A stretch of DNA of 64,000 nucleotides from Cyanidioschyzon merolae (lineage: Eukaryota). The notes under the pieces were generated by a model. The model had not been told where the DNA came from. It saw only the letters and a list, made by a program, of their open reading frames with translations, and did no database searches. The position numbers were made by a program, and so were the translations under genes. The DNA is taken from assembly GCA_000091205.1 (NCBI GenBank), contig AP006492.2. One strand, 5' to 3'. Of the stretch, positions 1 through 55,309 are shown piece by piece (the stretch's first letter is position 1; each line of letters begins with the position of its first letter).

Positions 1-2
1 TT

Positions 3-2910: not shown

Positions 2911-3059
2911 GCGAAAGTCACTCTCCGTCGGAGAAGTTCCCCAACTTAGGGCGTAAACAAGCGCATTCATTTGAAGAAATGAAAAGCCAGGGGACCTAAA
3001 GGACATGGAAGCCGAGGAGGCTGAAGGGCCGGTGTCGCCGGCTCCCGCAAAATAAACGA

Positions 3060-3410
3060 GCGGAATCCTGTTCTCGCTGACCATCGAGCGAAGAAGAGAG
3101 GAGATGGGCGAAACAAGGCATTTGTCCTACGGGGCGATGAAAAGACTAATGTGGCACAGAGGGCACAAATTCTGATAATCATGGCATTAATGAGTTCCAT
3201 CAGAGGCACCAAACGCATGGAGTTTGTGAAACGAGAAATTAACACTGCAATCAGTATCAGCGGATGTGCGGTTCTGAGGAAGAGGCCTCCGGAGTTGAGA
3301 TAATCCAAATTTGTGGGGGAATTTCTCAAGGTGGAATTCCACGGCGACAAGTTGAAGCCAGTAGTAAGGGGCCGGCCGAGAACGACTGAGAGGCGTCTGC
3401 ACATCGGTGG
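3060..3410 (+). pseudogene. 3' fragment of a family-A TnpB/Fanzor-like ORF, immediately downstream of IR-A.
   Basis: Translation 'KRMEFVKREINTAISISGCAVLRKRPPEL*' followed by '..[21 protein letters not shown]' is homologous to the C-terminus of 26406..27143 ('KQRMEFVNRGFNAAISIRRCAVLKTR...KLKPIAGGWSKKTGRRLHVGV'). It contains an internal stop. Confidence 0.6.
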
Positions 3411-3523
3411 CGGACGTTTTGTCTAGGGCGGGCGGTGCGCCGCTCACCATCAAACTGCACCGCCTATACAACGTTTGTCGCTCGCAAAGCATTCATTGTT
3501 TTCGGTGTGTAGAGCGTGGGTAT

Positions 3524-8379: not shown

Positions 8380-10978
8380 AGAAAGATCAAACGTATACAA
8401 TTTCAGCTTCCAGGTGCTACTATCTACAGGAAAACTGTAGAAGGGAGCCTTTCCCAAGAATCCAGCTAAGCTTCGCTAGAATGCGTCAGAAATTTCACCC
8501 CGCTAAAATGAATATCGTTGAACATGAACGATCGCTCCAACGTGGATCGCCGTTTCCAGGGTTTCGCTGACCCATGATCGCTAAACATACCCAAACGGTT
8601 GCATCGCTCTGGATATAATGTTTAGAGTTGTCTATGTGCTGCACTCGATTAAATGTCAAGCTCCCTTACTATTGTTCGATCGCTCGAAAAACACCCTGTG
8701 ATGACGAAACGCTCTGGGACCGTGACTAAAACGGACTTTCTGTCAGGCACCCCTGCGTTTTTGCGTGATATTGCCGACTTGTACCAAATAATAAAGCACC
8801 ATTATCGTACTCCAAATGCCCAAGGGAACCGTTCCCCGTGTATATATACGGCGTTCCTGCCTTACCGTGTTGCTGACTGCAAAAAATTGGGAACTTTTCT
8901 CGAGGCGGTGAACAACTGCCCCTTCGCCCAGCCACTGAGTTTCTTTCATCGGAATTGCTCGGCGTTTTAGCAGATTGCGCGCATTGGAGACTAAGCGATT
9001 TCCTCGTTATTTTTTTTGAAATAAAGCTGCTGGGCGCACTGGAAGCACAGAACATTTCCTGATGTTCGTCGGGCGGTTCAAGTCTCGGTAAAGAGAGTGC
9101 ACGCGCACATTTGTTGCGGAAGAAATTCCATCTCAGCAAGCCACGCACCTTCTATCGCCTCCCAACCTGACGTTCGACCAGCTTACTGTGCACCTTTCTG
9201 TGCGTCCAGGTCTGTTTATCTCTCCTCTCATCTGGCGGTTTCCGGGTCACCCATGATTTTGCATTTCTTTATGTCGTACTAAATTTCTCAATAGGAATCG
9301 CAGAGAATCGATTCCTGCACAGGCTGTACCATTCGTCGAAAGTGCAGCAGCGTAGCTCTCGTGCTTTACAGCACGTCAAGCGAATATGCTCCTTTCAGCA
9401 AAGGACTCGTCTTGTCTTACATTTCGTTTTCAAGGTCATTAAAAAATAGTCCGAATGTATGCCTCTCGTTCCGGTACAATGAGAACGGTTAGCGACTCAG
9501 AGCGGCATCAGCCACTCGAGCCAAAGATTATCGGCTTGAGTCATTGTGACATTCTTAGACACTCTGGCTGTAGTGAACTTAGCATCAGCCTCTGCTCGAT
9601 GCGAAGTTCAGAGCATCGACATGGGTCCTGATGCCGTCATTCCACTTGTTGGTATGCATCCTGGCTCCTTCCATGCCTGATTCACGTAATTAGTCAGCTC
9701 TGAGAAAACTGAGCAGCTTCATCTGCCTGTTTTCAAGCCCTCGGCTCCAGTCTATTGATTTAGAGGTACTGCCACGGCCTATATGCTCTGCAACCGGGGT
9801 TCCACGCGCACCGCAAAGTCGTTTCCTGCATCTACATTAAACGGCAGAGAATTCATCTAGTTCTTCGACGCACTCCGCGCCCTCACAAAAGACATGCGGA
9901 TGGATTTGCACTCGGTCGCTGCCCACCCCGCAGACTTCTTTCAAGTTATTCCATTAAAATGAAAGTCTCTGTTCGATTTTTGCCACTGTTCCCTCCAAAG
10001 TCCCTCGAATCCCTCATAATAGCTCGAAGAGGCCAGCCTTTGCTCACTGAGAAGTCCATGCAATACGGTACACCGGTTTCTGCCGTAATATGCTGACCCT
10101 CGATGTAAGATATATGGACCAAATCGAGTAGACGCTATAAGAGACAATGCCACTCGAATTTGGGGAGGGAGCGTACTCAGATCTGGAAGGTTTCGTCCAG
10201 GAAAACCTTGCAGCACAAGATGGAAGGAACACGTGCAGAAAGTTTCAACCATCCTCATGATATGACTTCTGTCGGCCGAATGCCGAGAGCAAGACGAAGA
10301 ATAGGTATGATAGAAACTGGCTCTCGCTATCGTTGCGGCATCCCATCTGCCACCACCGGCTCGCAATTTGCTTCCATCGATGTCGCAAGAGCCCTCTCCG
10401 TCAAAGATCGCTTAATTCCGCCCGACGCGGGTAGGCACAACGGGTACTGGGCCAAGAGTATGCGCTTCATACAGCGCTCGAGATTTAGCGGGTGCATGGT
10501 TTTGTTTTGTGGGTTAGCTTGATACTTTTCGGCACCAGCGATGAAGGTACTTTCATTATCGATGTGGCATGAGCAGACGACAACGTATTCTGGGAAGCAC
10601 GTGTTCTGATTTCTGATTCTGCGATGACGGCGCTTTACATATTCCACCCTAAGCATCAGTCGTGTTAACTCACGAAAGGTCGATTGAAACATTTCAATGG
10701 AATGCGGACAGCTGGCGTTCTGCATCGAGAGTTCGTACACAGAGTTGTGAGACGGGGAGCTTCAGTTCAAGGCGAGCGGAGCGACATTCCTCGAATGAGG
10801 AGGTACACGGTGCCTAATGGCATCCTGCTCCCTAGTTTTGGAAGATTCTCCCGGGTGAAGTGTTTTAGCAGGGAGTCTTTGATTGCGTTTCCAGAATAGT
10901 CTTTTCGCTTGGAAACTTTTCCTCTTCTGTGTATCCTCTTCGACAGTTCAGGGGAAATTTCCATGTTTTTCTTTTACT

Positions 10979-14712: not shown

Positions 14713-16439
14713 TCGCATAGTTAAGGGGCACAAGAAGAAGGAAGCGGTATATATAAGCATCAACGTTGCGTTCGAACTACTTTGCAAAGCGCGGTGGCGG
14801 CGCTTGGACAAGGTTTCTCGATAACAGGAAAGAAATACCGGAAACGTTTATCCGGACGATGGAGACCGACGGGATGCCAACCAGCATGCACCTTGCGGCA
14901 CGTATGCCAGAGTCGAGCAGTCAGACTCATTTCCAACCGTTCAAGGTTGATGAACAAACAGAGACTTTGTGGTCGGGGTCGATCCGTGACACTCGGCATC
15001 ATAGCCGTCTCCGTACCCCTGAATCAAGAGGGCGGTGCTAAAGACCTACAAGGAGAGCAGATAAAGCAGCTCGAATTTTCCAGTGCTCGATATGATCGGC
15101 AATCGGGCATGGTAGACGCCAGGCGGCATACCATCCAGAGGAATGGTTGCTCGAGAGCCCATCTCGACGCCCTGAGGACGGTAGCGCGCAGAGGGTAACG
15201 CTTTGTGCGCCTCACTCAGAGGGGGAGCTCATGAGCGTCAAACTGGCTCCAGCGGACGATCTTTGACAAGAACGCGTGGTGCCGAGCAGGGAACGCACAT
15301 GGTGCCGGCTCCGCAGAGGCGAGAAGCTCGTGTTCGCAGACTTTGTGGATGATGTGGGAAACGAAGTGACCGCCCAGTAGGGTCGATTGACGGTAGCCTA
15401 TAGCGCTGGACCTACTCCAGCTCACAAAGTCTGCAGTGATGCTCGCTCCCGTCGAGAGCTTGCTACAAGTTCAGGGATTGATTCTGCACGATTTCGACCG
15501 ACGCATTCACACCGTCATGCACGCAGCACGATCTCGGGAACAGGCTGAAACTTGTCGAGAAGAGGCGATTGAATTAGAGACCGTTGCACGAGATGGTGTG
15601 CGATACGCTGCTTGAACGCCCGATGGCGAGGCAATCGGAGATGCAGAGACTGCTGTGGTGTGCTTTCACCAGCCACAATGTGCTCAGGTTCTTTCTGCAT
15701 CGCGAGTTGATCGCCTCGATACACATCTGGCAATGTCTCGTGGTTCCGAAGCGCACAGCGGCTGTGTCGAGCGAACTTTCGGGAAAATCGTCTAGTTCTG
15801 CTTGTTGGCATTGCACTGACTGCCTGCAAGCTGTCGGTAAAAGCGCATCAGTGTTCAAGAACTGCCCGACTGAATGCCCGCTCGGAGCATAGCGCTGGTA
15901 CGGTATGGGTGAGCAATCGAGCGAGGCTGAAGCGGCCTGCTCATACAACGGGATCGGTTTCTCGGGGCAGAGGATGATTGGTAATGGTGTTCGAGTATTC
16001 GATCTTACTGCGTTTGAAGCAACCTAGAGTCCTGTTCCAAATAATCTCTTTTGCCCGAGATAGAACCCATTTGCATTTGCGCCGATATGAGCAGGTCCGT
16101 GTGGCAACGTGGATGAGAGCGTTCTGGAACTCGAATCAGAAAGGTGCGTTCCCTCTCAGCATCCAGCTAAACGCAACTTCTGAAACACGAAACTCTATTC
16201 GATCCGTAGATTCGACCAGCGAATATTTCGTCTTCCCTTGCTCAGAGAATTTTGTACGGATAGAGATACGATGGAACCGCGGCCTCCGGGAGTTCCGCTC
16301 ATGCACATCAACTGTTGCAACGGGTGGTGCTTTTGGCAGTCCCCATCGCACTGCAAGAACCTGGTCCATCTGCGTTGCGTCAACGAGCACCACGACAGAA
16401 GAGCTACGAATTTTCACAGTAATTGTTCTCAGATGGCGT

Positions 16440-16900
16440 CGCAACATACATTTGTTCAATGGAACGAAAACGTTTCGCGACCGGAGGATAAATTAAGCCC
16501 CACCCGCAGACGTCTCCCAGCCATTTTCGACTGGTCTCCTGCTATCGTTTCAGTTTTTATCCAGCCACATTTCGAGACTGGTAGGCCCTCCCACAAAGTT
16601 GGATCGCCTCTGCTCCGCGGGCCTCGTCTGCAGCACCGCACATCTTCTGATATTGAGAGCGGCGTTAATGTTTCTGTTTATGAACTCCATACGTTTCTTG
16701 TCGCCGCTTGTACTCTCCAGTGCAAGTGATACTCGAACTCGTGCCCTCTGTGCTATTTGCTGCTTTGCCAGCTCTCTGTACTTTTCTATTGCCGAAGCGC
16801 TTCGCTGGCTCTTCTCCATTGCGAACTTTTGAAGAGTAGACCCCAGCTCATCCCATAGATTTCTTGATTTTGAAAATGAATGCACTACTTTCTGCTCGTA
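16440..16900 (-). pseudogene. 3' fragment of a family-A TnpB/Fanzor-like ORF plus the conserved 3' tail, on the minus strand and adjacent to the IR-A right copy.
   Basis: ORF 16550..16885(-) contains 'KKRMEFINRNINAALNIRRCAVLQTRPAEQRRSNFVGGP', a RuvC-III-like 'N..NAALNI' motif. The reverse complement of 16440-16500 reads 'gggagacgtctgcgggtgggg...ggtcgcgaaacgttttcgttcc', which matches the element's 3' tail. Confidence 0.6.
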
Positions 16901-16936
16901 GGTGAGGGTCGTGCCGGAGGGATAAGGAATTGCAGA

Positions 16937-23558: not shown

Positions 23559-24839
23559 TGGCTTGAACTCACAGAGGAAATTCTCGTGCGCGCAACAAAA
23601 AGGTGATGTCACTCAAAACCAAGAAGGACCAGAGCGGAGGGCTCCATCGGACCACAGCGCTAACATCGCTGCTGCAGGGCGATCCTGCCTTTGTTTCTGG
23701 AACTCTTTGTTCACCCCAAAGATCGAAATTTACTCTAGGTGTTCGACAGTTATCGTCTCGCGTGCAGCAAACAGAAGCGATTGCTCCGGCTGAGCGAGAT
23801 AGCGACAGTCGGTTTCTCTCGCCACCTTGGGTATGGGCTAAGCTGCTTACTGGCTCAGAAAATCAACTGAGCAAACAGTGCCCGACCAATATAGGTGGCT
23901 TTACGCGCAGCGCTGCACACTGAAGCGTCGAAGTCGAACGAGAAGTTCATTCATTGATTGACTGCAGCGCTTTGAGGCAAGCCTATCCTCCGGCGCGCCT
24001 TTCATGATGGAGTGGGACGACGAAGCGACGTGACCGCTGGCATTCGCGCGATGCAGCTGCGGCAATTCTTATTTCCGACGACAAAACGTTCACAATTACC
24101 GATGGATACCATATCGTGGGATGGGTATTGGCTTTAGGGAAAGCGTCCATCATGCTGCTGCACCCTACCTGCAAGTTCCATTAATTATATTTCCGTTCGG
24201 ATACCCTGGTCGTTTCGCACGTCCTGCGGTGCGCCCGGTGTATCCTGTATGCACCCGCCTTTGAGTTTGTACCGCTAGACAAGATGCATCACAGAGAAAG
24301 AACGGTTTTGTCACACCACAGAGCGCGTTGGCCCGAGGCATCGTTCATCTGAAACGGGGTCGGGGTTCATATCATTCTGGGAGGCTGCAAGCTGTGCAGA
24401 CAGACCTACTGCCTGCGACAGCGCGAAGCGATTTAGTAGGAGTTCGCCGCTGCAAGGGGGACGCCCAGACGCTGCATGCCCCATAATTGTCACAGGATGA
24501 ACTGTGTAGCGGACGGGCTGCTCAGATCTCACTACGGTACCAGCCACTGCAGAGTTGCACAGAGCAGCTGCCCGGCAGGCTCATCGGGCTCCGGTGACCT
24601 TTCGCCTGAACGAGAAACTTTCGATGATCCGTAAAGCTTCCCTCCTTCTAACGTTTTCTGTGGAGGGGGAACGAAATTGTTATCGATCTGCTAGTTAGTG
24701 TTTAGTATTTGTTCTTTGCTCTCTACAGTGAGCTCCATAAGCGCACCTCCATATCCGGCATGCATGATACAAGACGTGCATCTTGCTGTTTAAGGGAAAC
24801 TCGATCCTGAAAAGTCGTCCTCCTTTTGTGCTAATGTAG

Positions 24840-27200
24840 AAGGTGTATTTACGTTCAAGTCATAGCAAAATTACAGTCATTCATTTCAATTGTGTTTCAA
24901 CCCTCAAGTTAGTATATTCAAGTGATTTTTCGCGGTTTGTAGCTGAGGCGCTCAAAGTGCGTTCGTTTCCTCAAATAAAAAAATAAAGTTATGGAAAATG
25001 AAGTGGAGGATCCTGAAGGGCCCGTGTTGCCCGCTGCCGGAAAAAAGTAAAAACAGTGCCGAGGATAGAGGAACAGGAGAAGACAAAGAAGCAGGGGGGA
25101 GACGTCAAAACGAACTCGAAAGACAGCACTACGACGAGAATGTAGTGCAAGCCTTTCTGCTATGGCATGTCAAGGATCCCTACAAATAAAAGTTGCGGGA
25201 GGCCGTCAGAAACCGTGTCGAGTCGTACTCCACGAGTATTCTTGAGGCTTCTTCAGGATTAAGGCATCTGGCGTAGCACAAGTATCGCGAAGTGACGGAC
25301 CTTAAAACAGTTGAGGTTCCGGAAGAATTTTTCGACGAAACCTTTATTCGTCACCAGAGGCTTGTCACAGAGAAATGTGGAAGAGAAATGAGCGAGCCTG
25401 TGTCCTCCACGAAAACTTCGCCGAACATCGCTTCAACAGAACTCGATACAGGGGAACTCGAATATTTAGAGATACGGTACAATGAATCATCTCACGAACC
25501 TGAAGAACCATGTGACCATGAACCTCAAAAGCTTCATGATACGCGCCGTGTTTGCGCTTTACCAGGGCCTCTCTCACAGAGCGAGATGAGCGATTATCGA
25601 TGGCATCACGAGCGATAATAAGAATGAACAGGAGATAGAATTCGTCGACAAGAAGAGATCACACAGGAGAAAGAAAGAAGTCTCTGCAATCTGTGTGGTA
25701 CTGGAGCTGGCCAATCCGGTAGAAAAGGTATCAGAGATGGAAAACGATGGAAAAGATGTTATTCCATCATTCTGTGTTAAATCGTGATCCTGAATCGAGA
25801 GCTCGAACGCAAAGCGGAGGTGGAGCCGGCTGTGAAAAAATGAAGAGTCGGAGAAAAGGAAGGCTTTTCTGATAGAAAAGCGCTTCAATATCGTTCCTTA
25901 ATGCAACATCGAGTGGCGCTTGATGACCATCGACTACATAGCCCTCCATGGCATCATTAGCGATATCAGTCCGGAGTTTGATGTAACCAGGAGAATTTTT
26001 ATGGTGAAAGCCAGGATACTGTTTGGAAGAATATATTCGATTTCAAAACTTTCAACACAAGCAAGAAAAGGTATCCACGGGAATCATCGAAAGCGATGGG
26101 GCATCCATATGCGTACCCTATCGGCGCTTGAAGGCGGATCGGTCTTTTCTGTTTTCGTTGTTGCCCCTAGCGAAGCATGAATAAAAGAAGGAGGCAGGTC
26201 CTATCACGCATGGGATGCAGGAGGACGTCATTGTCGTCAGCGTTGACCCTGGGAACAAGTATATCATGGCAATCGCAGTATCCAAGTCTGGAAAAGACGG
26301 CATTGACTGTAACTTACGTCAAAAAGACATGCAGCTTTTGAAGCTCTCAATAGCGAAATATTACCGAGAGTCCGGAATAATGCATGCAAGGAAGAAAAGC
26401 GAGACGTGGAATTGAGGAGTGAAGGAGCACCTGGAAGCGATCAGCCAGATGACGAGCCGAGGAGCGGACTTTCAAGCTTTTCTGGAATTGATGAAAATTC
26501 GCGCTGCTCATTACGAGGCGCTGTGGAAAGAGTACACAGAGACCTCGTGGGCTCGTCAGCGTACGAGCCTGTGCGGAGAAAAGAAGCGTGCATTCACCAA
26601 CTTCTTCAATCAGTTGGGTGCCCTCAAGGTAGTCAAGAGTCAAAGGCTCGTAGCAGCGTGCGGAACAGGGCGCTGGGCGTCCAAAAAGGGAACATTCCAG
26701 CTCCATCTACAAGAGCGTACAAAGAGTACGCACATCGTTTTCTCACAGTACCTATGGATGAGTTCCGAACGTCATGCATACACCATGAGCTGGGGTGTAC
26801 GCTCCGGAGGGTCGTGACGGGAAAGTGTCGGTTGGGCTCTGATGATATCGAAAATTACGGAGAGCTAATGGAACAGAAAATTGAAAGGAGAGCGAAAGTT
26901 CGAGGACTACATGCATTAGTGAGTACAAGCAGCTGCAAGCAACGTATGGAGTTCGTGAATCGAGGCTTTAACGCTGCGATCAGTATCAGGAGATGTGCGG
27001 TGCTGAAAACAAGATCCGCGGAGTTGACAAGAGCCAAGTCTCTGGGGCAATCTTTCAGACTCGAAATGTGCAAGAAGAAGCTGAAGCCGATAGCAGGCGG
27101 CTGGTCGAAAAAGACTGGGAGGCGTCTGCACGTCGGTGTATAGACATAAACTCTATGGTTGTAAAGGATTCGCCGTTTCTTTCATCCTCGGGGAGATTAT
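24840..27200 (+). mobile_element. Family-A element, copy 1 (about 2.4 kb). It encodes a decayed TnpB/Fanzor-like RuvC nuclease, frameshifted and with internal stops.
   Basis: The 5' region matches copy 2 ('agt.tattcaa.tgatttttcgcggttt.tagc...ataaa...gttatggaaa.tgaagtggagg'). ORF pieces show a RuvC-I-like 'VVSVDPGNKYIMAIAVSKSG' (26215..), then '..KKRAFTNFFNQLGALK..RLVAACGTGRW' and 'AYKEYAHRFLTVPMDEFRTSCIHHELGC' (the TnpB 'YKA...V.P..TSQ.C..CG' zinc ribbon), then the RuvC-III-like 'KQRMEFVNRGFNAAISIRRCAVL' (Pfam OrfB_Zn_ribbon consensus '..dRDvNAAiNIlrrg'). The 3' tail is 'gggaggcgtctgcacgtcggtg...ctctatggttgtaaagg'. Confidence 0.65.
26215..27143 (+). pseudogene. TnpB/Fanzor-like nuclease ORF remnants of copy 1 (RuvC-I through RuvC-III), split across at least two frames.
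   Basis: ORFs 26215..26415, 26419..26817 and 26406..27143 together carry the RuvC-I, zinc-ribbon and RuvC-III motifs listed for the element. Frame changes near 26700 indicate inactivation. Confidence 0.6.
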
Positions 27201-31550: not shown

Positions 31551-34500
31551 CACGTTTCACGGAATCGCTGCGTTTGCAGCGCGTGCATCTGGATCCTCTG
31601 TGGCACTTGGCAGTACAATGCATGCCATCTATACGAATTTTTCGGACACCGCGAAGCGGACTCAGAATCGACTGGCTTTCGTCAGATGCCGATCATTGTT
31701 CGGAGAGGCAATATATTTGTGAAAGATAAGCGGCAGAGGGGGAAGAATCATTTGATGTGCTTCTCAGACAGTTCCTGAAGTACTCTACCTTGCAAACTTT
31801 ACCTGTTGCTCCTCGAGATGCCAGAGGAGAACGTATCCGCAAATCCTTCGGCGCTGCTACAACAGTCTGAGGATAACTTGGTACACGTCTTTTAACCTGG
31901 GTACACACTCTAAAGTTTGCGTCACAGCCCATTGCCATCTACGAATCCAGTCCTTGCAGTCCTTTTCTCTACCTGCTTCATTTTTCCCGCTCGTGTCTCA
32001 GGCATTACGAAGGTCTCTCACGTCACTCCAGCTCAGTTGGCAGCGGTCGACGGATGCTGATGGCGGCGTTAATGCCCTATTTCACGGCTTCTGGATATTG
32101 TCAAGGTTCTACATGCAGAGGCAAAAGTTGCGACGTAGGCTTCGCTTGCCATTTCCATCTTCCTTTTATATAGCATCAGTGTCCACGTCGTAACCATTTC
32201 GCCGTACGGTTGTCAGGTGTTCTCATGTGTCCGCCACATGGCCGCCTCCGAGGACTGCAATTTGGGGCGTAAGCGCATGCTTCAACACTTGGTATATGCC
32301 CTTGACAGGAACAGATGGGTCCCGCTATACGCTCCTCCGTTTCCAAGCCTGGTACCGTACACTGTTATCACGGACTTCTTCGGGGCAATGTGCTTGACGA
32401 GTACTGGATATGCTGAAGATGCAAGCGCGCGCTTTTATATTCAAAAGACGACTAATAGAGCGTGATGTTTTCATGATGAAACAATTATCGGCAGGAAAAT
32501 CCAGGCTGGAGAGCAAGTCAAGAAATTCGATCCGTTTACTCCTGCATTGTGCGAAGCGTTTACGCACGCTTCTCTGAAAACAATCTTCGCAATGGCTCAA
32601 GTCCGGGCCAACGACCCTTTCCCATGCAAACAGAAGAGATGGAAGGCCCTGGGACATATCCCGTTAGCAGTATCATGCCGGTGTGGAATGCCTTTCGTCA
32701 ATGGCCGCAGAGTAAAATTTGTCTTCCGAACAGATTCGATTATTGGACGTAAGGAGATCATTGAACTTTTGGCGCGACCTTGCAAAGAAACCTCCGAGCG
32801 TTGACTTCTGGTTATTTTCCTTGTTAATCCAGCAACATAAATTTTTGCATCCTCGAGTTGCTCCGGAACCGTAAAATATTAAAAATGAAAAAGACGTGAC
32901 GTAAATATATAACCCGTAATGAAAAGAGAAGAGCGACACTCATTCTTATGAACTGGATGATGCTATCCGATATCTTTTTACGAACCCTTATTCGAGTGTG
33001 TTGCAAATCATCGTGGCCCCGGAGAGGTGACGGATTCTAGCGGCAAATATTCGAAGGCGCCGCTCTACAAAGAAGGAAGACAATCCTAAGTCTGGTTAGG
33101 AAGCCGTATGCACTTATTCCTGCATTTGGATTGTCGATGTCGTGCATCTAAAAAATCTCAAAATAAACTTACAGGCATGGACAGAGTGAGCAGTTCCGTG
33201 TACCATTTTAGTATAAAAGGGTTAAGGAGCTGGGTTTCCGCGCCTAGATGGCTGGGAGTTCAACCATTTCTGATTCGATGAAAAATGAAAGCAAGGCAAC
33301 GAAAGAAAACATTATCTGAACGAACCCTGTCGTTTGGTTTACTGAAGTTGTATTCACCACATGCATCAGAAATGACTGCAAGGGACTGAAAGTGCGACTA
33401 ACATCCAGTAACGGATATCTATAAAGAAACGGTTTTCGGGAGGATAACTTTGGGAGTCGCGCCTGACGTAGGGAGTGAACAAGAATTTTAGGCCGCTATG
33501 ACGTGACATGAGTTTCACGGACAGCGACATATCAGGCGACCAACAGACCTCGTGTTGGAAAGACGATTACCAGTTTGTCTGCTTCTGTCGATCATACCAC
33601 GAAACTAAGAAGCAGCTTTAGAAATAGTCCTTCAGACTTTATGACGAGCAGTGCTCTATGGATGACGAGAAGTTTCTGCAAGAGATTCTTCCGTTCACAA
33701 ACATAAGCCGCATCAGTATTCAGGCATCAAGAGGGCGACGAGATCGCATTCCGAAGCACGGTTACCAGAAGGGTTCTATCTAGAGAAAGCAATGGGGAGG
33801 TATCCCGACTGAATCTCCGCTCATAAATTCTCGATCATCTCATTTCGGATAAGGATGAATTGGTGCATGTCGCCCGAATGCATGCTGGACGCCGCCGTCT
33901 GGAATCGAGTTACACTCGCGCTCCGACAGAATTCAGATTGCGCGCTCGTTTTCGTACGCCGCGCACGTCGATTTTCGCTTGCAGAAATAAAATTTTTTGA
34001 TCAGCGGAAGGCTGTCACTTACAAACGATCACCCGTTGTGCGATTGATATCGTCTATCGGGACACCGCCCAGCCTTCCGTATTCCTATGTCCATTTCCCA
34101 CCAGCTCCCACCCATGCCTCCTCTAGATGCTAAATTTTTAGTTCGCGAGTTCCGCCATACCCCGACCGTGCCGCAAGTGTTCGCAATGGCGCCTGCAGCG
34201 CTCGTGGGGACGCAGTTCGGAAAGTCATGCTTTGCTCTACCACTGGGGCGTTCGCTCGGGCCGTCCTTCACCCGAAGCTGGGCTGGAACTGGTCGCTTTT
34301 CCGGGATACAACAGGCGATTTAGACGGATTCAGTGCCGGCGGCCGGAAGATACATTCTGATAGATCATAGTAATCAGTGCGCTGCCTGTACGCAGCTAAA
34401 ACACTCCCTGTCCAAAAACACACTGCGTTGTGGACGAGAGCCTCAGAGCTTACGGCAGTGCCTGCCACTTGCGGCTCGCCGAGCACTAGCCTAACGCAGT

Positions 34501-35453
34501 CGTCGGGGTCGCGGGAACTCCTGCCTCGAAGATATACTTTCGAATAAATGGAAAAAATTTCCATATTTCATCTTCCGCCTACGGGGAATAAATATGTTAA
34601 CGACCTTCATTTTAGCGGTAAGCGTCAGTGATTTTTTCCCACAAGAGTTCAACAGAATTGTTTTGAGTGCATAGCTGTTTCGGTATCGAGCCTGGCCAGG
34701 AGACATAATGGCGCTGTCCACTGGCTGCCTCCATTAAGGCGATTCAAGACGTTTTGCTTGTATGCATTCATCGATCTTAGCAGAGGGAGCGTCCATGAAC
34801 ATTATTACATTACCCAACAGAATTTTTTACCAGCTGTGAAACTGGTTCTTTCAGCATAGATATTTTGGCGCCATCGAGTCTCCCATGACCTGCAATTTTT
34901 ACTCGGAAAGATGCAAAAATGGAACACAATTACTTTTCACCGCTCTGCCAAGGAAAACGCCCCCGTTGTACGTAAACGGAGCTCCAGTACTGCTGGAGTC
35001 CTAAATCATAGCACAACAGTGCTGTGCTCCAAGAAAGAATCCAAGGCCTTCTTTCTTGGCCACCTGTTTTAATTTCTTCCCGAGTGCATTGGACTTTAGC
35101 GCAGTGGCCATCCTGAGGACTAAGCGATTGCATTGAAATTCCGCCCGAAATGAGACTGCAGAACGCTCCAGAATCAGATAACCTTTTCCGATATCGATCG
35201 AGGCGTTGAACTCTCTTTGCGGAAGTTGCTTGCGCACATTGTTGCCTGTGGATTCACAAAATCGCAAGCTGCTAACTTTCCATTGACTCACCATCTAAAG
35301 GGCATTCAGCCTTCCGTATTCCATCTCCAGCGTCCGGCTCAGCGTTAATCTCTTTGTTTCTAGTTTTCTAAGCGTATACCCCTGCTCATGATGCGTGAAT
35401 GTCGTCCTGAGCGCTCCGAGGAGAATCGTACAGGGTAGGTACTTGCACTCGTT

Positions 35454-36032
35454 CTATGCTCTCGTGGAAGGAGCGGGAGTGCAGTCATTACGAGGTACAG
35501 CGTGTCCACCACCATAGGCTACCACAAAGCGACGTGACCAGTCGCTAATTTGCCTCCCCAGCTCATTGAACAAGTTGATAAATGCACGCGTCCTTCCTTT
35601 GAACAATCGATACATTGGCCAAACTCGCTCAGTCTCACGTAATTCTACGAAAGCTCGTAAGCGAGAGCCATTTGGACCGTCATGCACGCCCTTGGAAAGA
35701 AGCGAATAACCCATCTCGCGGTGCTCAGTACGGTGCTTAGAGCTTCGAGTTTGATACTGACGCATGCGTTCCACTTGCTGGCATGTATGAAAACGTCCAT
35801 CATGCGTGATTCTCGAGGATAGAGGGCCGAGGAAAAGTTGATCAGCTTCATCTGTTTCCCGTTCAGGTACTTGGCTTGTTTCTTCCGTTTTGTATGTATG
35901 GTATAGGCCGTGACACCCCTCCCTTTTCAAACAGTAATCCATTCCCTTCACGATGTCTTTCTCTTCGTGTACCCCGAATGGTGGCAAATGACTTACGTTG
36001 CCGTACTCAAGCCTTGATCTAAGAAAGCGCAT
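35454..36032 (-). pseudogene. Family-A/B-like TnpB fragment (middle portion).
   Basis: 'TRAFINLFNELGRQISDWSRRFVVAYGGGHAVPRNDCTPAPSTRA' aligns with copy-1 'KRAFTNFFNQLGALKVVKSQRLVAACGTGRW...PAPSTRAYKEY' and copy-2 'QRAFANVLNQMSALKGDKSQRRVIAYRAGRR'. It is truncated and has no RuvC-III. Confidence 0.45.
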
Positions 36033-36234
36033 GCAGGTTGATAAGCTCTAGGTCTTCATTGCCTCTGCAAAATTCTTTCCATATCCTCATTCCAAACGTG
36101 AAAACTTGGATGAGGTCCTCGCAGTTTTCGACAAATTGTTAGAATGCTTTATAATTGTTCCCAGAGACCAGCCGTATCGTGCAAAGGAAGGCATACATTG
36201 GAGTGCACATGTTTTTTAGATTCTATGATGAGAT

Positions 36235-36801
36235 TTAAAGCCATATATGGCGACCGCATCGCGTAGGCGCTCGAGAGGACGAGGGCGTCCGGAGTCGGTG
36301 AAGAAGTTTTTCTTGACTGTTGAGGGTTCTCTTCTGGAACACGTAGAATCGCAACATGAAAGGAAAGCAGGTATCAGGCTTCAGCCATCCTTTGGATTGG
36401 ACCAGGATACGTTCGATGCAGAGACCAACAAGACGAGCTTTGAATCTATCCAGCGACTCTCGCTCTCGTTGGGACACCTTTCCCAAACTAACATCCAATC
36501 CGATCTCGTCCACAAAGAGCTCCTTATTTGCCGCTATTGACACCCCGAGGATTGCCTCGATTCGTCCCCATTTTTCTGGGCCAGTCAGGTGAGGCTGGAG
36601 CACATACAGGGTGTGCCGTATGAAGCGCCCACATTGACTCACATATAATGCTGTTTTCGGGGTTAGTTTGATCTTTGCTGGCTCCCACGCTTGTGTTGCG
36701 ATCGCCAACGCAGCAAGGCGACGCTTAAAGGCCTTCTGAGAACCATGTGTGCAAATATATGATACTACGATATATCCGTATTTCCTACTCTGTCGGAGCA
36801 T
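36235..36801 (-). CDS. Hypothetical protein of 188 aa, no family recognised.
   Basis: ORF with an ATG start (reverse complement at 36799-36801). It sits between repeat-derived sequence and AT-rich spacer. There is no motif support, so this is a low-confidence gene call. Confidence 0.3.
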   Translation of the reverse strand: MLRQSRKYGYIVVSYICTHGSQKAFKRRLAALAIATQAWEPAKIKLTPKTALYVSQCGRFIRHTLYVLQPHLTGPEKWGRIEAILGVSIAANKELFVDEIGLDVSLGKVSQRERESLDRFKARLVGLCIERILVQSKGWLKPDTCFPFMLRFYVFQKRTLNSQEKLLHRLRTPSSSRAPTRCGRHIWL

Positions 36802-37779
36802 CAGTCGTATTGTTACATGAAGCTTTCATCGAATATGACGAGAGGGTGACGTGCAGCTGGCAGCCGCGTGTCCGGAGCTCGAACATATAGTTGCTTTACA
36901 AGGTGCATCAAGACGAGGGAAGCTATGACAGCCTTTGCTCTGTTGGGAAACTATGCGATTTCGAACTGCATGCTATACCTAATGTTTGGAAGAATCTCGC
37001 CGTTCCTGGTTTTCAATAGAGAGGCCCCGACGATGGTTTCAGAGCAGTTTTTCAGCTTCGACAGTTTTCCTTCCTCTCGCTCCTTGTCCTCTTTTCGGCA
37101 GGAGTTTCCTCTCGTTTGTCTGCTGGGAACTTCTTCGCTATACATAGGAGGGGCGGCATTAATGTGGCCCCTACATTCCATATGCATTTTTTGGAACTAA
37201 TACGCACTGGGTGGACAATTGCGTTGAATCTCGTCTTTTCAATGGATGTATCGATAATTCCTTAAGTAAATTTTTGTCACGTTTTTCGCCGCGAGCACTA
37301 CCACGGACCAATGTGCGCATTTCGGCTTCTGCCGGTCCACAATCAGAGAAGCAGCAAAGCAGATCGGGGTTTGTGAATGTAGCCAAAGATTTGTCGAACG
37401 GCTGTGTCACGGATGCGAATAAGTGGTCTATTGAATCGTGAGCTTGGAAACGGAGGTTGAGAATATAGAAGATGCCTCAAACCGGATTAAACCAGGCAGA
37501 AAACGCTTGGAAGAAGAGCTGTTCAATTTCAATCTCAGCAGCGTACTCCCTGACCGCCTTAGAGTCATGGGAAGCGGTGTTAAGCGAGAACGGAACGGGA
37601 ATACGTGCAAAGGGGAATCTACGAATTGCTGCGACGAAGCGTGAGGTTTCTTTACAGATCCCATTCGTTTAACGCTTTGTGGACGACCACACGGGTGGCT
37701 CCCCATTAGCGTTGATATTGTCGTTATTCTCGATTGTCTCTCTCTAATGATGGGGGGTTGCCCCTTTCCGAGCACGTAT

Positions 37780-41223: not shown

Positions 41224-41400
41224 GCTACGGTAAGAAATAAACAATGCTATTCGTAAGGAGCGGTAAGAAGTAAGCGGCTCGATATACCGCCCCAATGGGG
41301 ATCGCCATGACGGCACGCGGAGCGTATCCAAATCCGTAACGGCCGGCAGCTGCCAAAATCTCACGTGTATCCTGCACGCTCCCAGACGTTTTTGTGCAGC

Positions 41401-44059: not shown

Positions 44060-45395
44060 CCTGTTAGATGTATTCTCTACTGAACAGTGCACGGAGGACT
44101 ACATTCCTTATTCAAATCAGTCATAACACAGTTCTTTGATGGCTGAGGTACACTGCAAGAAAGACGTAGATGCGCTCTGCGTGAAAAACTGGTATTTTCA
44201 GTGCGCGCTTGCGGTAAATGAAAGAAAACAGTCCTTTGCTCACCTTACTAAAACCAAAAAGCGACGGTAGGAGCCACTATGGGCGTCTCTTTTTTCTCAA
44301 CAGCTTGTTCGTGTGTTCCTGTACACACTGGGATTCTGTCGCAAAAAAAGAGTCCAGTTCCACACACGGTTATTCTCTACCGGAATCGCAACACCAGGAT
44401 TCCTGAAACTCAGAGATGGGTATGAAGCAAAGGGGCGTCGGTTTGTTTTTCAGTTGATGGGAATTCCTTCGGATGAAACGGTGGTATCGTGTATGGGTAT
44501 TCGAGCAGCAGGGTGTCCATTGTGTTTACGATCGAGCTCGAAGCGAACAAAAGCATCCTTTGATGTGGCTGCAGTAGATTCATTTAGCGGCCTCAGTTTC
44601 GCTCGTACAGAGGGCTCATACCACACCACCCACTTCGTTGAATCATTGAAGACTTTTGCTCTTATGTTTGGCGAAGTTCTTCAATCGGAGAATGTGGTAT
44701 TCCACCACTAACGTTGTTTTCGAGCTTTTGCCGATTTTATAATGTAGAGCTGCTTTTCATTCCTTCGCACGCTCCGTGGTTCGACCCCATCGAAAGGGTG
44801 TTTTCTATCTTGAAAGGTAATGATCGCTACACTGAGCGAAACGATGAAGCTTTCAGCGAGCTGACACATCGGGGCACATGATGCCATTCTTCCGCAAGTC
44901 CATCTCCCTCCAGAAAGGTTCTTACCTCGGGCATAAGAAGCGCGTTCGTTTTCAAAATTAAAAATCTAAGGGATGAGCTGGGGCGCAGGCTTTTGAAGGC
45001 CCAGATAGAGAGAATGCAACGGAGCGCCTCGGCTGTAGTAAAGCCTGGAGAGCTGGCAGAGGACCAAATGGCACTGGGGGCACGAGTTCTGGAAATCCTT
45101 GCACTAAAAAATTCTACCAGTCTTGATAAACGCATGGAGCTCGTGCACCGAGACTTCAACGCCCCCATCCATATCAGGATGTGTGCGGCGCTGAAAATGC
45201 GACCCGAGGTGTTGACGCGAACGAACTTTGTGGGGCAGCCGCTTAGGCTCGAAGTGTGCAAGGAGAAATTGAAGCCGATGGCAGGGGGCCATTCGAAAAA
45301 AACTGTGAGAAGTCTGTGGGTCGTTATTTATTTACCCCCAGGTCGCGAAAGGTTTTAGCTCCACTGAGCAGCCGTGGAGCTTTCCCAGTCAAGAT
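44060..45395 (+). repeat. Third, more diverged copy (about 75% identity) of the composite unit, with an IR-A-like part at 44060-44770 and a family-A TnpB 3' fragment at 44830-45395.
   Basis: By hand, 44080-44230 aligns with 2091-2240 ('aacagtgca.cgaggact.cattcc...tgaggtacactg...tattttca...cttgcggt.aatg'). ORF 44993..45358 reads 'DKRMELVHRDFNAPIHIRMCAALKMRPEVLTRTNFVGQPLRLEVCKEKLKPMAGGHSKKT' (RuvC-III 'RDFNA..I'). The tail is '...cccaggtcgcgaaaggttttagctcc'. Confidence 0.6.
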
Positions 45396-50646: not shown

Positions 50647-53600
50647 AGATCCAGTGGCCAACCGATTGTCAAACTTAGAGGGTCAAGGTGCGTTCCAATA
50701 CAGCCCTCGAGCCACGTTTCGAGGCTATATAGGTCCTTGTGCCACGGAGATGTCAAAGATTGCCACGAACTAGCTTGAGCGTTCGTGGAACCTTCAGTGG
50801 TGCGTTGGCCCAGAGCAATCGTCAACCAAAAGTTTACTGCACCACAAACCGTGACGACTCGCTAGAAGACTGAGCGATTTCCTTGCGAAAAGCGGAAGCA
50901 ACTTTACCTTGCGAGCAATAGGAAAGGTGGTCGCGAAGCCGGTGCTGTGAATGCTGTTCAGGGAGTAGAGACGACGGCTGCTTACGTAGCGGCAAGTTCA
51001 TGATCTGGACATAAGGCAAGAATAAAATGTACATTTTGGACATTGACGTCGTTCCCGCCAGGAACATCCATGCACGTTATTGCAGCAGACATTTCCGAGA
51101 GAAGAACTTGCTTCACGAGGTTCAGCTTAAAATCGTTGGCCCCAGCTCGCAAAGTTTCCATTCCTGCCACCTGTGTAGTCTTCGTTGTGCCTCGAGCTGA
51201 CGCACGCAAGTACATAGCGACCGGTGCGAATACTCCAGAATTGCAGCATGTGCTCACGCCAGGCGCGGTAAGTGAACGGTTCGCTGAATCGAACGTCACC
51301 GTATCCCTGTCGGGAACACTCGCCTGCGGTAGGCGCACTGTAGAAGCCTCTGGGGAAGAACACACGTCTTTTGTCGGGTTGGTACAAGCAATAGCGCTTT
51401 TAAACCTGTGTCATATTGAAATAGAAAAATGAACTGCTCTCTCTGTTCCTGCCTTGCGATTGTTTTCCGAACTGGCTAGGGAATAATTTCTCAAAATTCG
51501 ACGCACAGAAATTACAGGTTAAAGATCTACACGCAGTTCTTGGATCCTCGCACGCCTTTTTCGAGTTGCTGCCTCGAAGCCTTGCCGCTGGAATTCGTTC
51601 ATTCATCGAATTCAAGATGATTCGCGAAGCCCACGAACAGTGGTTCGTCAAATAATCGATATCATCGCCCAACTCATACTTAAAAGCTTCTACTGCTCTA
51701 ACTTGCCTAGGTTTAACGTGTTCAAATGACGCATGCTCGAAATTTTCGATCTTTTTGCTTCAAGGCAGCATGCAAGTGCAGAAATTCGCGCCGCAGCATT
51801 GACGAGGATGAAAACTCGACATCGTCTCGTAACGGCTTCTCCACAAACTCATGCCAAAGAATCGATTTCGTTCGAAAGAAAAAAAAAAGTAGCCACGCTC
51901 TGTGGTATTCGATTAAAAGGCATTCCATGGCAGCATGAAACTTGCCAAGCAATCCATTTAAAGAGACTCTTTTTTCCTCTACATGGATGGAAATGGGTCT
52001 TGAACCCGGAATTCAGACACCGCAGCGATTGCTTCCAATGGGGACTACGTCGCCGCTCTGCAGAAAGAGAGCGCAGATAAATCGAAGCTTCTTGGGTTGA
52101 TCTTTAGTCTGGGTTTTCCTTCTGGTAGTTATTTCACTACAGACGACATTGTGTTCCTCAAATCCTATATTCAGTGGAGCAGCCTGCGCTTGCGCGTTCA
52201 GCGGACATGGCATCTACCGAGGGACTGCCATGAAAAAGCTTGCGATAGTATACTACGGCACTGCGCGCGTATAATGAGCGGGGTATCAAGGACGCTTTCA
52301 GTATTCGTTATAGGTATGAACCGGGCGATGAAGTAGGCGTACATGCACCAAAGAGGAGCCCTTTGAGGAGGGGCTGTCATGGACATTAGGGAACACCTGA
52401 AGATAACCATGTGTCTTTGCTACGAAAGGTGCTCCGAGATAGCATAAAAAGAGGATGAAAATGACATGCAATGCATAGATCGCATCTATGCTCCGTTCAA
52501 AAATGCTTTGGCAACAGCCGGAATTGACGTAATCCAGACTTTATCGTTGCCTTTAACGTTTTTTCTGTCGATAACGGAGCTCGGAAGTCTGTAATACCGC
52601 CTTATTTGAAGCGTATGTGAGAGAGATGACCAGGAAGCATTCGTAAAAAGAAGCTTATACGTGCTACTGTTATAGACAGTTGTAAAAGACACGATTTTTC
52701 TAGCGTATGCTCATAGCGGATGACTCGTTCATTTTTATTTTTACATGTTTGTAGAGGATTCTGCTGTAAATCACTGATCTCACACAAGAGCAAATGCGTC
52801 CTCCAAGGAACCTGTGACAACTCCCAACGTGTTCAACGTCCGGCATTCGTCGCCGAGGCTGCACAGACTGTGTTACCATGAAGCAACATAGTTCTTATCC
52901 TTTGGCATACATTCGCAGTATATTAGAACTTTGGGCATCATAAATCAACATGTTTGGCGAAGCTTGACCATAGATTCATGTTACTCAGGTTGTGCACCCC
53001 TTGCAGAAGATGCAAACTTTTTGAGCATGGCGACGTACTCCGGCGGCGTACGAGTGCGTTATCGCTTTAACATTAGTTTCCGTCGACGTTCCATTGAGTA
53101 GCGACATGAACTCGATCGTTCGTTCGTACCCTGAAACAGACCAGCAGGACCGGACTGTGTAGACGAGGCAAGAAGCGCTATGTGAAAGCATTTACGTATA
53201 TTTTACCCTGTCATCGAGGTGCTGTACAAAAAGACAGCGAAATTACAACTGTTTCTGTTCCTTTGTTGAAGAGTATCCCACCAGCATTCAATAAGACAGG
53301 ATTTGTGTCCAGGTATTGGGTAAGGGATCGCCCTAAATGTGATAAAACGGAGAGGCTCCTGTACATAGTGATGTTGAATAGCAGAACACTACTGTGGTTC
53401 ACGAGTATTCCCGAAAAATTTCTCCCGGTGTATATCTACGGCGCTCCGGTCTTGGCAAAATGCTGAACTGAACCGTCCCTGTGCCATGGCCGAAGCGAGA
53501 ACCCAATGACCTCTCTCCTGATCACTGCTTCTTTTCATCGAAAGTCTTCAGTGTTTCTTCGAACTGCTCACACCTAGTACTGAAATATTTCCGCAAAATC

Positions 53601-55309
53601 TCGCCAGATGCAAAGCCGCTGGACATTGCAGAAGCACCAGACATTGCCGGATATTGATCAGGGCGTTCAAGTCTCGGTGTAGAAAAGTGCTTTCGTGCTG
53701 CGTCGCTGGTGAAATCCCATCTCAGCAATCCGTTCACATGTGATTGCCTCGCCGTCTGTCCTTCTGTTAGCGTACCGTACAGCATGCAGAGCATCTGGCT
53801 CTGTTTCACGCTCTTGTTCTCTAACTGATTCAGCATACAAGCGTGCTTGTGATGAATGTACGTCGTCTCGTAGTCATAGACGGAGATCGTACAATATCGA
53901 TTCCTGTGGTCTTTGAACGCTTCGGCAGCGGGCGCGAGCGTGCAGTATTCACGCTCTACAGCACGTGCAGCAATCTAGGCTTCCTTAAACCGACGCGGTA
54001 TGTTGGCAAGTTTTGCGTCCAACGAAGTGAATATGTTGGGAAATGTGCACCTGATGTACCCGTACACGCGGAAGCGCTGGCGAACCCAGCCCGATCGCAT
54101 GCACCCCCACCCGTGCCCGAAACCGTCCATATGAGCCATTTGGACGCTCATGTAAGCTATGAATGAAGCGCCCAGAGCGTTTCCCCTGTTCGATACAGGG
54201 CAGGGAACGTCGCGATGGGTCCTGACACCATCATTCGACCGGTGGTTGTACCTCGTGGCCTCCATCACGTCCCATTCCCAATGAAACCGAATCCAGGAAA
54301 ATCAGATTGTATGGTACGTTCAGCGCCGAGCACCAGTTGTTGCACAAAGGAGTTATCGAAAGATACCACAGCGATGTGTGCAGCAGGCATGCCCTGCGTC
54401 ATGAACGCCCCCGAGGAGGTGCTCGTCAATCTCCGTACAAGCGCGGAAGCTGTCCGAGGTAAATTCGAATAGAAGGCTATGCAAATCCGAATGGCGTTAT
54501 GCATGACAAGTTTTAAAAGATTCCCGCAGTTGATGTGTTTGGGTAGTGAGGCCTCGAAAAGTGTTTCAGCCTGGTCATTCCGATTTTGCAGGGGCTTACT
54601 TGCTGTCACCTCTCGTCCTCTTCTCGAGAGGATCCTTCTTTTTCTGGAAGTTTCTTCTCCTTCACCTTAAGTTGACGGCGCCGCATGAATGTTGCCGTTA
54701 TATTCAATATCCGTTTTTTTCGGATTCCAGACGCTCTGGATGGACGGCGGCACTGAGTCTTGCCTTTACTATGCATGTAGCGACTGTTCTTCAAGAACGT
54801 TTCCTCATGCTCTCCGTCGCGAGGGCGACAACGGCCCGACGCGTGCCCCTCCGCCTGCTCCGGTGCTCGAGTGGATGTGCAACACAGCAGTCCACGGCTA
54901 CTCAAAGCAGAGAACGCTACACCGAAGGACACGTCTTCACGGATGAGAGCAGCTCTTCTTTTGATCCGCGAGCATAAAAAAGGAGGTTTACGGCAGAAAA
55001 GACGTTTTCGACTGGATTTTTCGATGGAGAACATACTGGCACGAAGAGCAACTCCACGCCGATCGTAGCTGCTTCCTCTCTGTCCGGTTGCGATTGATGG
55101 AAAGCGGCATTGTCTGAGAGCGAAACAGATGGATCTGGAGCGCAGAAGCTCTATAATGGTTCGACGTAGCAAAATGTGCTGAACCGTGGTGTCGGTCGAG
55201 CGGTTCGTCGTTGACTCACGAATGCATCGCCGATGAGTCTCGTTTTGTGGCCATGCGGACTTGGCTCTTCTTTAATAACAGCCGTGAGCCTCTCTTTGAA
55301 TTCCCATAT

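Follow-up and report, generated by a model that had tools for sequence, protein, structure and literature searches.

The Fanzor1 elements of the red alga Cyanidioschyzon merolae were described in 2013 as a single family, CMe-1A (Bao and Jurka, Mob DNA 4:12; PMC3627910), with about 150 copies that are each about 80% identical to a consensus of roughly 3 kb (3169 bp), which carries a single-exon open reading frame (ORF) for a protein of 734 aa. The family has no terminal inverted repeats (TIRs), its target site duplications (TSDs) were not determinable, its class was given as unknown, and the 5' 635 bp of its consensus are shared with a second repeat, TE-N2_CMe, an ORF-less partner family (PMC3627910). 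Fanzors of Rhodophyta were counted again in a 2023 census (PMC10530073). Other described systems to be compared are SpuFz1, carried by the element Spu-1 of Spizellomyces punctatus, the CRe-1/2/3 elements of Chlamydomonas reinhardtii, and bacterial ISDra2 TnpB. Here we analyse a 64,000-nucleotide stretch of C. merolae contig AP006492.2 (the window), for which a first-pass annotation, read from the letters alone, had proposed a family of TnpB/Fanzor-like elements. The repeats of the window are, we conclude with high confidence, fossil copies of CMe-1A, a Fanzor1-carrying transposable element family, surviving as inert pseudogenes. The identification as Fanzor1 is correct but was already known, CMe-1A having been published in 2013.

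The identity with the published family is seen at the DNA level. When the CMe-1A consensus given in the supplement to PMC3627910 was aligned to the window by blastn, the first of two large copies (copy A) matched consensus 1-3092 at 24076-27137 with 78.9% identity. The second (copy B) matched consensus 4-118 at 57515-57636, 633-737 at 57632-57736 and, as its main block, 740-3092 at 57838-60183 with 81.3% identity. The 5' portion shared with TE-N2_CMe is thus present in copy A from position 1, and is reduced in copy B to 4-118 and 633-737. Three short copies match the 3' 250-350 bp of the consensus at 69-74% identity. When stitched across frame changes, the proteins of copies A and B are 58% and 64% identical to the 734-aa CMe-1 consensus protein. 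The likeness to CMe-1A therefore covers the host, up to 3.1 kb of DNA at 79-81% identity, the single-exon ORF of about 734 aa, a TE-N2_CMe-like 5' module (copy A), the lack of TIRs, and an equal degree of decay (about 80% to the consensus). The CMe-1A-type features of the window are the following.

24076..27184, plus strand: copy A, a complete CMe-1A-type element (blastn to the consensus and global alignment), made up of a TE-N2_CMe-like 5' module (consensus 1 to ~640), a 5' untranslated region, a Fanzor1 pseudogene and an alternative 3' tail; the 3' limit of ~27184 is an estimate from alignment of the tail with copy B and the fragments.
24991..27143, plus strand: Fanzor1 pseudogene of copy A, from the ancestral ATG (MENEVEDP) to the stop codon.
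57515..60228, plus strand: copy B, a CMe-1A-type element without most of the 5' module (consensus 119-632).
To ~60228, plus strand: alternative 3' tail of copy B, ending ...TTTTCGCTCCTTTGA (tail alignment).
58006..60190, plus strand: Fanzor1 pseudogene of copy B, start ATG MEMEVEGP.
2959..3430, plus strand: CMe-1A derivative with an internal deletion that joins consensus 869-965 to 2808-3114; its 3' tail is of the CMe-1A type.
16456..16921, minus strand: 3' fragment, consensus 2737-3084 plus alternative tail, RuvC-III INRNINAALNI (D to N).
44864..45367, plus strand: 3' fragment, consensus ~2630-3083 plus alternative tail, RuvC-III VHRDFNAPIHI.

Two near-full related copies had been claimed from the letters, and comparison of the window with itself confirms them: 24831-27159 (A) and 57844-60203 (B) are 73.0% identical across 2372 bp, and shorter self-matches to the 3' part lie at 3184-3409 (+), 16506-16851 (-) and 45128-45316 (+). 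Both copies are real, and both reach further 5' than had been proposed, A from 24076 and B from 57515. All of the quoted peptide motifs are present where they had been placed: VVSVDPGNKYIMAIAV, NRGFNAAISIRRCAVL and AYKEYAHRFLTVPMDEFRTSCIHHELGC in copy A, NHDFNAAVYD in copy B, NRNINAALNI at 16.6-16.9 kb (-), and HRDFNAPIHI at 45.1-45.2 kb. When a six-frame translation of the window was searched with a family hidden Markov model (HMM), copies A and B gave domain E-values down to 1e-48, which puts the resemblance among the repeats beyond chance. The same search brings the number of Fanzor-derived loci in the window to nine (A, B, the three short copies and four very old relics), with the pieces totalling roughly 13 kb, or about 20% of its length.

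Membership in Fanzor1 emerges only when the search is widened beyond the window. Scans against Pfam and NCBIfam gave nothing significant, whether with the single ORF pieces or with the stitched 715- and 718-aa proteins of copies A and B, and phmmer with stitched copy A against all PDB sequences gave nothing either. Stitched copy A does find 35 proteins, all from JGI metagenomes, and the best of these (P0001, 752 aa) matches with E = 4.6e-195 at 46% identity and itself shares 71% identity with the CMe-1 consensus. Of precomputed Pfam labels these homologues carry DUF8286 alone, and that one weakly. In PDB the profile made from 19 close homologues (A1) had no match, and the AlphaFold2 (AF2) model built from it was useless, with a predicted local distance difference test score (pLDDT) of 34. 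An exhaustive HMMER search of 1.84 billion cluster representatives returned 1462 at E <= 1e-3, many of them 600-700 aa long; with an alignment of 56 diverse full-length relatives drawn from that search (A4), the failures of the shallow profile and of the poor model were resolved.

The A4 profile matches PpFz (Parasitella parasitica Fanzor1, 9cf0) at 6.6e-21, SpuFz (Spizellomyces punctatus, 8gkh) at 1.1e-11 and GtFz (Guillardia theta, 9cer) at 1e-6, and no PDB chain other than Fanzor1 is significant. The AF2 model of P0001 on A4, which represents a relative and not a window copy, reaches pLDDT 81.2 and a predicted template modelling score (pTM) of 0.79. In a Foldseek search of PDB with this model the seven best matches are all Fanzor1 (E 6e-16 to 1e-12, TM up to 0.72), states of SpuFz coming first (E = 6e-16), followed by PpFz and GtFz, with Cas12, TnpB and Fanzor2 weakly after them. 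Because the profile matches are to Fanzor1 only, the fold is that of Fanzor1, and the DNA is that of CMe-1A, the reading of the window family as a degenerate, transposon-borne Fanzor/TnpB-like RuvC nuclease family is supported. The first-pass annotation, which had made this claim, had suggested HMM searches and a structural comparison as checks on it. The former come out negative for direct Pfam and NCBIfam scans of the pieces and positive for the A4 family profile, and the latter is positive at the level of the family, through the P0001 model and SpuFz. Read literally, the empty direct scans alone would have counted against the claim under that annotation's own refuting criterion, no significant HMM hit. 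A skeptic could point to the negative direct scans of the window pieces, and to the weak DUF8286 as sole Pfam label, and hold that the motif resemblance is coincidental or that the protein belongs to an unrelated family. Profile and fold searches significant for Fanzor1 alone, together with a 3 kb DNA match to a published Fanzor1 consensus, already refute that view, and its probability is close to nil.

Three columns are invariant in A4 (P0001 numbering): D484 in DPG, E656 in VDEFRT, and D725 in NRDxNAAxNI. They fall on "IDPN", "LDEYKTS" and "WNRD" of SpuFz1, that is on D383, E541 and D606; the magnesium ligands of SpuFz1 are D383, N385, E541 and D606 (PMC10432273). The RuvC-II of Fanzor1 is rearranged, its canonical glutamate replaced and an alternative glutamate used (PMC10530073). 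By sequence alignment, the conserved E of VDEFRT stands just before the TNB region, as in the LDEYKTS of SpuFz1, and the strand of the canonical E reads VAYGAG. Two labels given at first pass do not hold as worded. The "zinc ribbon" is right in position only, since the CxxC...CxxC ligands are not conserved in the clade (a single Cys in 40 of the 56 relatives, plus two partly conserved His). The "Pfam OrfB_Zn_ribbon signature" fails in that PF07282 (Cas12f1-like TNB) is reached neither by the window copies nor by their closest relatives: P0001 stays under the cut-off (E 0.23), and only 11 of the 56 more distant relatives match at E <= 0.01 (best 3e-5). With TnpB and PF07282 the clade has in common only the NRDxNAAxNI motif of RuvC-III. 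The consensus also has an N-terminal basic stretch, KKRKTVPSPEEQEKTKKQKREARRQRLQERR, which resembles a nuclear localization signal (NLS) by its sequence and has a counterpart kept in the pseudogene of copy B (RERRKRVPTKVRQDKTKKxKREARRQRLQERR).

SpuFz1 and its element Spu-1 (Saito et al. 2023, PMC10432273; PDB 8GKH, 9CEU-9CEZ) resemble CMe-1 in the Fanzor1 fold (model TM 0.70-0.72), the aligned D/E/D metal ligands, the layout of a single-ORF element of about 2-3 kb without transposase, the company of an ORF-less partner family, and a 3' non-coding end beside the right end of the element. The differences are as instructive: sequence identity is about 14%, Spu-1 has 30-33 bp TIRs and TA target duplications where CMe-1 has none, and the CxxC zinc ligands kept in SpuFz1 are lost in the CMe-1 clade. 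The SpuFz1 copies are young and active whereas those of the window are dead, and of the two, guide RNA and cleavage are demonstrated for SpuFz1 only. ISDra2 TnpB (IS200/IS605; PDB 8H1J) shares the RuvC fold, a RuvC-III motif of the NRDxNAAxNI type and the logic of a right-end guide RNA, and gives a weak partial structural match to the P0001 model (Foldseek E 0.027, about 270 columns). It differs in its length of about 400 aa, its canonical RuvC-II glutamate, its intact zinc finger, and its setting in a bacterial insertion sequence with TnpA.

Judged by what their sequences retain, the window copies are members of Fanzor1 by descent and not functional enzymes. Stitched copy A contains 9 stops and 4 frame changes, and copy B 6 stops and 5 frame changes; in global alignment to the consensus, indels that are not a multiple of three number 13 in A and 12 in B, in agreement with the first-pass observation that all copies are frameshifted or carry stops. 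The D/E/D triad, invariant in 56 of 56 relatives, is intact in neither full copy. Copy A keeps the D of RuvC-I (SVDPGN) and the alternative E (MDEFRT) and has G for the D of RuvC-III (NRGFNAA), while copy B has G for the D of RuvC-I (GAGPG) and Q for the E (IDQFRT) and keeps the D of RuvC-III (NHDFNAA). In the internally deleted copy at 2959-3430, RuvC-III reads VKREINTAISI (D to E). Mismatches to the consensus are spread nearly evenly over codon positions 1/2/3 (16.7/17.7/24.3% in A and 16.3/16.4/23.2% in B), with 21-24% in the non-coding parts, and because of this evenness most of the divergence of A and B is neutral decay that followed insertion, while a small part is older and arose under selection. 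A family "active recently", as had been suggested, does not fit copies that are about 20% from the consensus and 27% from each other with substitutions so near to even. A and B share one- or two-base deletions at consensus 956, ~1781, ~2015 and 2631, all of them in A-runs. These were considered as proof of descent from a common defective master, and were set aside as such, since slippage in A-runs or an error in the consensus is equally likely.

Relatives outside the reference genome were collected by a metagenome scan with the consensus protein, which returned 344 related stretches (JGI), from which 80 loci were kept (a set of 80-81 related loci, L001 onward). Most of these loci are broken, and their identity to the consensus is 74-89%. 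A few retain long open frames with D/E/D: L001 (819 codons, the longest), L006 (629) and L019 (594). In L001, the best of about 81 loci, the frame does not include the ancestral ATG, which lies in another one. Many samples contain the P0001 cluster. Intact paralogues, whose existence had been held possible, were not seen: the protein hits come from JGI metagenomes and none of them from the C. merolae proteome, and the best related locus is L001 with its displaced ATG.

It might still be argued that CMe-1 is alive, with intact Fanzor genes elsewhere in the genome or in wild populations, and that the window copies are its recent casualties. The 344 stretches speak for a large family, the metagenomes that hold them also hold contigs 99.7-99.9% identical to the window, three loci retain the long open frames just listed, and the P0001 cluster is recurrent. 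Set against this are the divergence of the window copies (19-21% from the consensus, 27% from each other, nearly uniform over codon positions), the broken state of most of the 80 loci, the displaced ATG of L001, the level of only about 80% identity to the consensus among the roughly 150 published copies (PMC3627910), and the lack of any C. merolae proteome protein among the homologues found. We consider a living CMe-1 of this kind quite unlikely, and retain the reading of the window copies as fossils. As a separate observation, P0001 (L001:9800-12256) has at residues ~388-469, just before RuvC-I, three tandem repeats of an acidic segment of about 26 aa (KHEE.KEA.PATQEVQDNDFVV) which is disordered in the model (pLDDT below 50) and is represented by one unit in the consensus.

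Four further relics are far older, and are a difference from the published picture of CMe-1A in that the consensus does not detect them at standard blastn settings. They are listed here together with a solo element of the partner family.

8977..10866, minus strand: very old near-full Fanzor1 relic, HMM positions 37-611.
14766..15769, plus strand: very old partial Fanzor1 relic, HMM positions 292-598, RuvC-III FLHRELIASIHI.
35058..37097, minus strand: very old near-full Fanzor1 relic, HMM positions 9-601, RuvC-III LPQREFNASIDI.
53590..54600, minus strand: very old relic with an internal deletion, HMM positions 17-109 and 381-598, RuvC-III FLHRDLNALINI.
34016..34638, plus strand: solo TE-N2_CMe-like element, of the ORF-less partner family of CMe-1A, consensus 18-640 at 61% identity.

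The four relics are 26-38% identical in protein to any family member, come into view only with tblastn or the family HMM (as DNA they are scarcely found by the consensus), and may represent an older wave or a sister lineage. With them the first-pass inventory is both upheld and corrected. Copies A and B and the three short copies stand. The "3' fragment" at 3060-3410 is a related copy that proves to be the internally deleted one of 2959-3430. The "middle fragment" at 35454-36032 is Fanzor-derived and lies inside the near-full minus-strand relic at 35058-37097. The other three relics, at 8977-10866 (-), 14766-15769 (+) and 53590-54600 (-), had been missed. The idea that only 3' fragments survive, as from LINE-like 5' truncation or the retention of guide loci, was rejected as largely an artefact of detectability, because the HMM shows the older copies to be near full length. 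The solo TE-N2_CMe-like element, of which blastn with the consensus picks up 34390-34554, lies about 400 bp from the 3' end of an old minus-strand Fanzor relic.

The 3' ends are where most of the window copies depart from the published consensus. Copies A and B and the fragments at 16.5 and 45 kb end with an alternative tail, ...GGTCGCGAAACGTTTTCGCTCCAYTGA, which contains a palindromic GCGAAAACGTTTTCGC hairpin and replaces consensus 3093-3169. The consensus terminus itself (~3093-3169, with hairpins ending ...GAAAGGCG) is absent from A and B, whose alignments stop at 3092. The alternative tail is found at 27140-27184, 60185-60228, 16456-16505 (-) and 45317-45367, and also at metagenome loci L065/L066 and L074/L075, while the only consensus-type tail in the window is that of copy 2959-3430. 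By sequence comparison, the copies with the alternative tail form an undescribed CMe-1A subfamily with a different 3' module; we take A, B and the two fragments to be a subfamily variant of CMe-1A and not a different family.

Across the family the 3' end has a small GC hairpin, which is conserved, and a terminal hairpin whose end coincides with that of the element. The terminal hairpin varies in sequence, with two or three versions (...CGTTTTTCTTTTGAAAGGCG, ...CGTCGTTCGACTTTCGAACGGCG, and the window tail ...GGTCGCGAAACGTTTTCGCTCCAYTGA). In 39 copies, 83% of cells in the proposed hairpins pair, compared with 36-62% in slid controls. G-U pairs make the terminal hairpin more stable as sense strand, with a mean of -7.5 kcal/mol, than as complement, with a mean of -4.8 kcal/mol. 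There is precedent among Fanzors for a guide-RNA scaffold that adjoins the right end of the element (PMC10432273, PMC10530073), and the 3' hairpins are compatible with such a scaffold, on weak evidence.

A related proposal is that 3' fragments were retained because they still have a function, either as "ghost" guide-RNA loci without an ORF or as modules with a regulatory or terminator role for neighbouring host genes. Three short copies do keep the 3' end, the elements ending at 3430 and ~60228 do so near the starts of downstream ORFs (from 3407 and from 60240), and 134 functional ghost loci are known for SpuFz1 (PMC10432273). In conservation, however, the fragments do not surpass the full copies (69-74% against 79-81% to the consensus), their hairpins are partly decayed and their folding z-scores ordinary, much of the apparent 3' bias vanishes with the family HMM, in which older copies are near full length, and no active nuclease is there to use such guides. 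Retention for function is for these reasons very unlikely, and the fragments are better read as debris of the same fossil family.

Several observations weigh against the picture given so far. The last ~77 bp of the published consensus find no match in A or B, where a different tail stands. The window copies themselves are without significant Pfam, NCBIfam or PDB sequence match, and because of this the family assignment runs through transitive homology and the published consensus. Third codon positions in A and B are somewhat more diverged than first and second, from which it follows that part of the divergence arose under selection. With regard to an RNA role for the 3' ends, RNAalifold gives one small hairpin only, of 4 bp; covariation is weak, with 3 pairs changed on both sides, probably in few events; and folding z-scores are ordinary (-2.0 to +1.65).

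The 5' end also calls for revision. A conserved GATTTTTTT(C) stands just 5' of the published consensus start in most full copies, at 24066-24075 in copy A, 57505-57514 in copy B and some 20 further loci (60 nt upstream compared), and it remains attached where a TE-N2-like module is inverted beside the Fanzor core. To judge from these alignments, some 10-12 nt are probably missing from the 5' end of the Repbase-type consensus. The T-run 5' of the element was considered as a Helitron-like insertion target, but more likely belongs to the element itself, since GATTCTTTTTT is still joined to the module where that is inverted beside the core. About half of the related copies (L006-L085) have no TE-N2 module, and their start lies at a small hairpin (GCGCTCGGTGAGCGC or GCGCGGTCGATACGCGC) around consensus 646-690; these core-only copies have several differing upstream modules, including an inverted TE-N2-like end. 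From its sequence, CMe-1A looks like a composite of a Fanzor core of about 2.5 kb and a separate short element.

Ends of this sort raise the question of what moved the element. The elements could have been non-autonomous passengers of a transposase supplied in trans, of the HUH/Helitron2 or IS200/IS605-like kind, with the hairpins as transposition signals. The lack of TIRs and of detectable TSDs (PMC3627910) would suit such a helper, as would hairpins at or near both ends of the Fanzor core, the 5' end shared with the ORF-less partner family TE-N2_CMe, and the example of Chlamydomonas, whose Fanzor1 elements ride Helitron2 and show 5' truncation (PMC3627910, PMC10530073). These elements, CRe-1/2/3 (PMC3627910; CrFNuc-1, PMC10530073), resemble CMe-1 as algal Fanzor1 elements of high copy number without classical TIRs, with terminal or subterminal hairpins and a surplus of 3' ends. 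They differ in having introns, a recognisable Helitron2 context and asymmetric TIRs, whereas no Helitron features or RepHel were identified for CMe-1. Further, neither the window nor the surroundings of the 81 loci showed a Rep/helicase or Y1 transposase, although no systematic search for one was made. The terminal hairpin, being more stable on the sense strand through its G-U pairs, suits RNA no less than single-stranded DNA. Replitrons have not been found in red algae (PMC10288648), and a link to them was dropped on that ground. A single-strand HUH-type helper for CMe-1 is conceivable because of the hairpin ends; the passenger hypothesis as a whole is improbable. It touches only the movement of the element, and is compatible with the identification of the window repeats as fossil CMe-1A copies.

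The descent of these copies from a Fanzor1 gene, the identity of the element family, and their inactivation are demonstrated. A live CMe-1A would have been an element of about 2.5-3.2 kb with one intron-less ORF of about 734 aa, encoding no transposase. Its protein would have had the N-terminal basic, NLS-like stretch, WED and REC domains, a split RuvC and a degenerate TNB region, with the RuvC metal bound by the D of DPG, the E of VDEFRT and the D of NRDxNAAxNI. Such a Fanzor1 would bind a guide RNA (omegaRNA/fRNA) made from the ORF's 3' end together with the element's right end, and would cut double-stranded DNA matching a flank-derived guide beside a target-adjacent motif (TAM). Guided cutting of this kind would favour persistence or spread of the element. 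RNA-guided cleavage by a live CMe-1 is inferred by homology with the characterised enzymes SpuFz1, GtFz1 and PpFz. None of this is left in the window, an intergenic-rich part of its chromosome, where each copy has frameshifts and stops and lacks one catalytic residue or more.

The surroundings agree with this host. The phenylalanine hydroxylase (PAH) ORF at 41365-42966 is identical at 521 of 521 residues to XP_005534812.1/BAM80205.1 of C. merolae 10D, by which the window is nuclear DNA of that strain, as the first-pass description of a eukaryotic nuclear locus had implied. The other genes of the window (plastid-type GluTR, E2 acyltransferase, Miro, a GLTSCR1-domain protein and a methyltransferase) fit a plastid-bearing eukaryote. 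A diatom or other intron-poor alga, which GluTR and a GC content of 50% had suggested, was discarded as host in view of the exact protein match to C. merolae. As expected of the intron-poor genome of C. merolae, the ORFs are predominantly long and single-exon, and scans of the whole 64-kb window for tRNAs and Rfam families gave nothing at threshold. The 3' end of the internally deleted copy (3430) falls inside the mechanical start of the E2 acyltransferase ORF (3407-4969), and the end of copy B (~60228) lies about 12 bp ahead of the methyltransferase ORF (60240-61322). Metagenome and SRA-assembly contigs (loci L002-L005; JGI 3300005861 and 3300001340, ENA ERZ27249350, Logan SRR6207159) are 99.7-99.9% identical to window 31401-52970 over up to 21.6 kb, which indicates that the same species was sampled there. 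Near-clonal relatives of the reference strain 10D are present in those metagenome and SRA samples.

As a discovery the result carries little weight, the C. merolae Fanzor1 having been catalogued in 2013 and red-algal Fanzors recounted in the census of 2023. It has value as a positive control: a TnpB/Fanzor relic overlooked by direct Pfam and PDB sequence scans was recognised from the raw letters, an identification reproducible only by profile or structure methods. For local annotation, about 20% of these 64 kb can now be labelled as remains of Fanzor1, among them four relics whose age puts them beyond nucleotide searches. CMe-1A, whose ends and classification were left open in 2013, gains a second type of 3' tail, extra 5' bases and conserved terminal hairpins. 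What novelty is left consists of such annotation detail and of the weakly supported idea of a 3' RNA. A bolder proposal joins three parts: that CMe-1 is not wholly extinct, with near-intact D/E/D Fanzor1 genes in wild Cyanidioschyzon; that the exchangeable 3' hairpin modules (at least three tail versions) are alternative guide-RNA scaffolds; and that a resurrected consensus protein together with its 3' RNA could yield a Fanzor1 nuclease. We regard this combination as doubtful. If it were true, the resurrected consensus with its 3' RNA could give a Fanzor1 nuclease from a red alga, and the hairpin-ended layout, without TIRs or TSDs, would point to an unrecognised HUH-type route of single-strand mobilisation in red algae.

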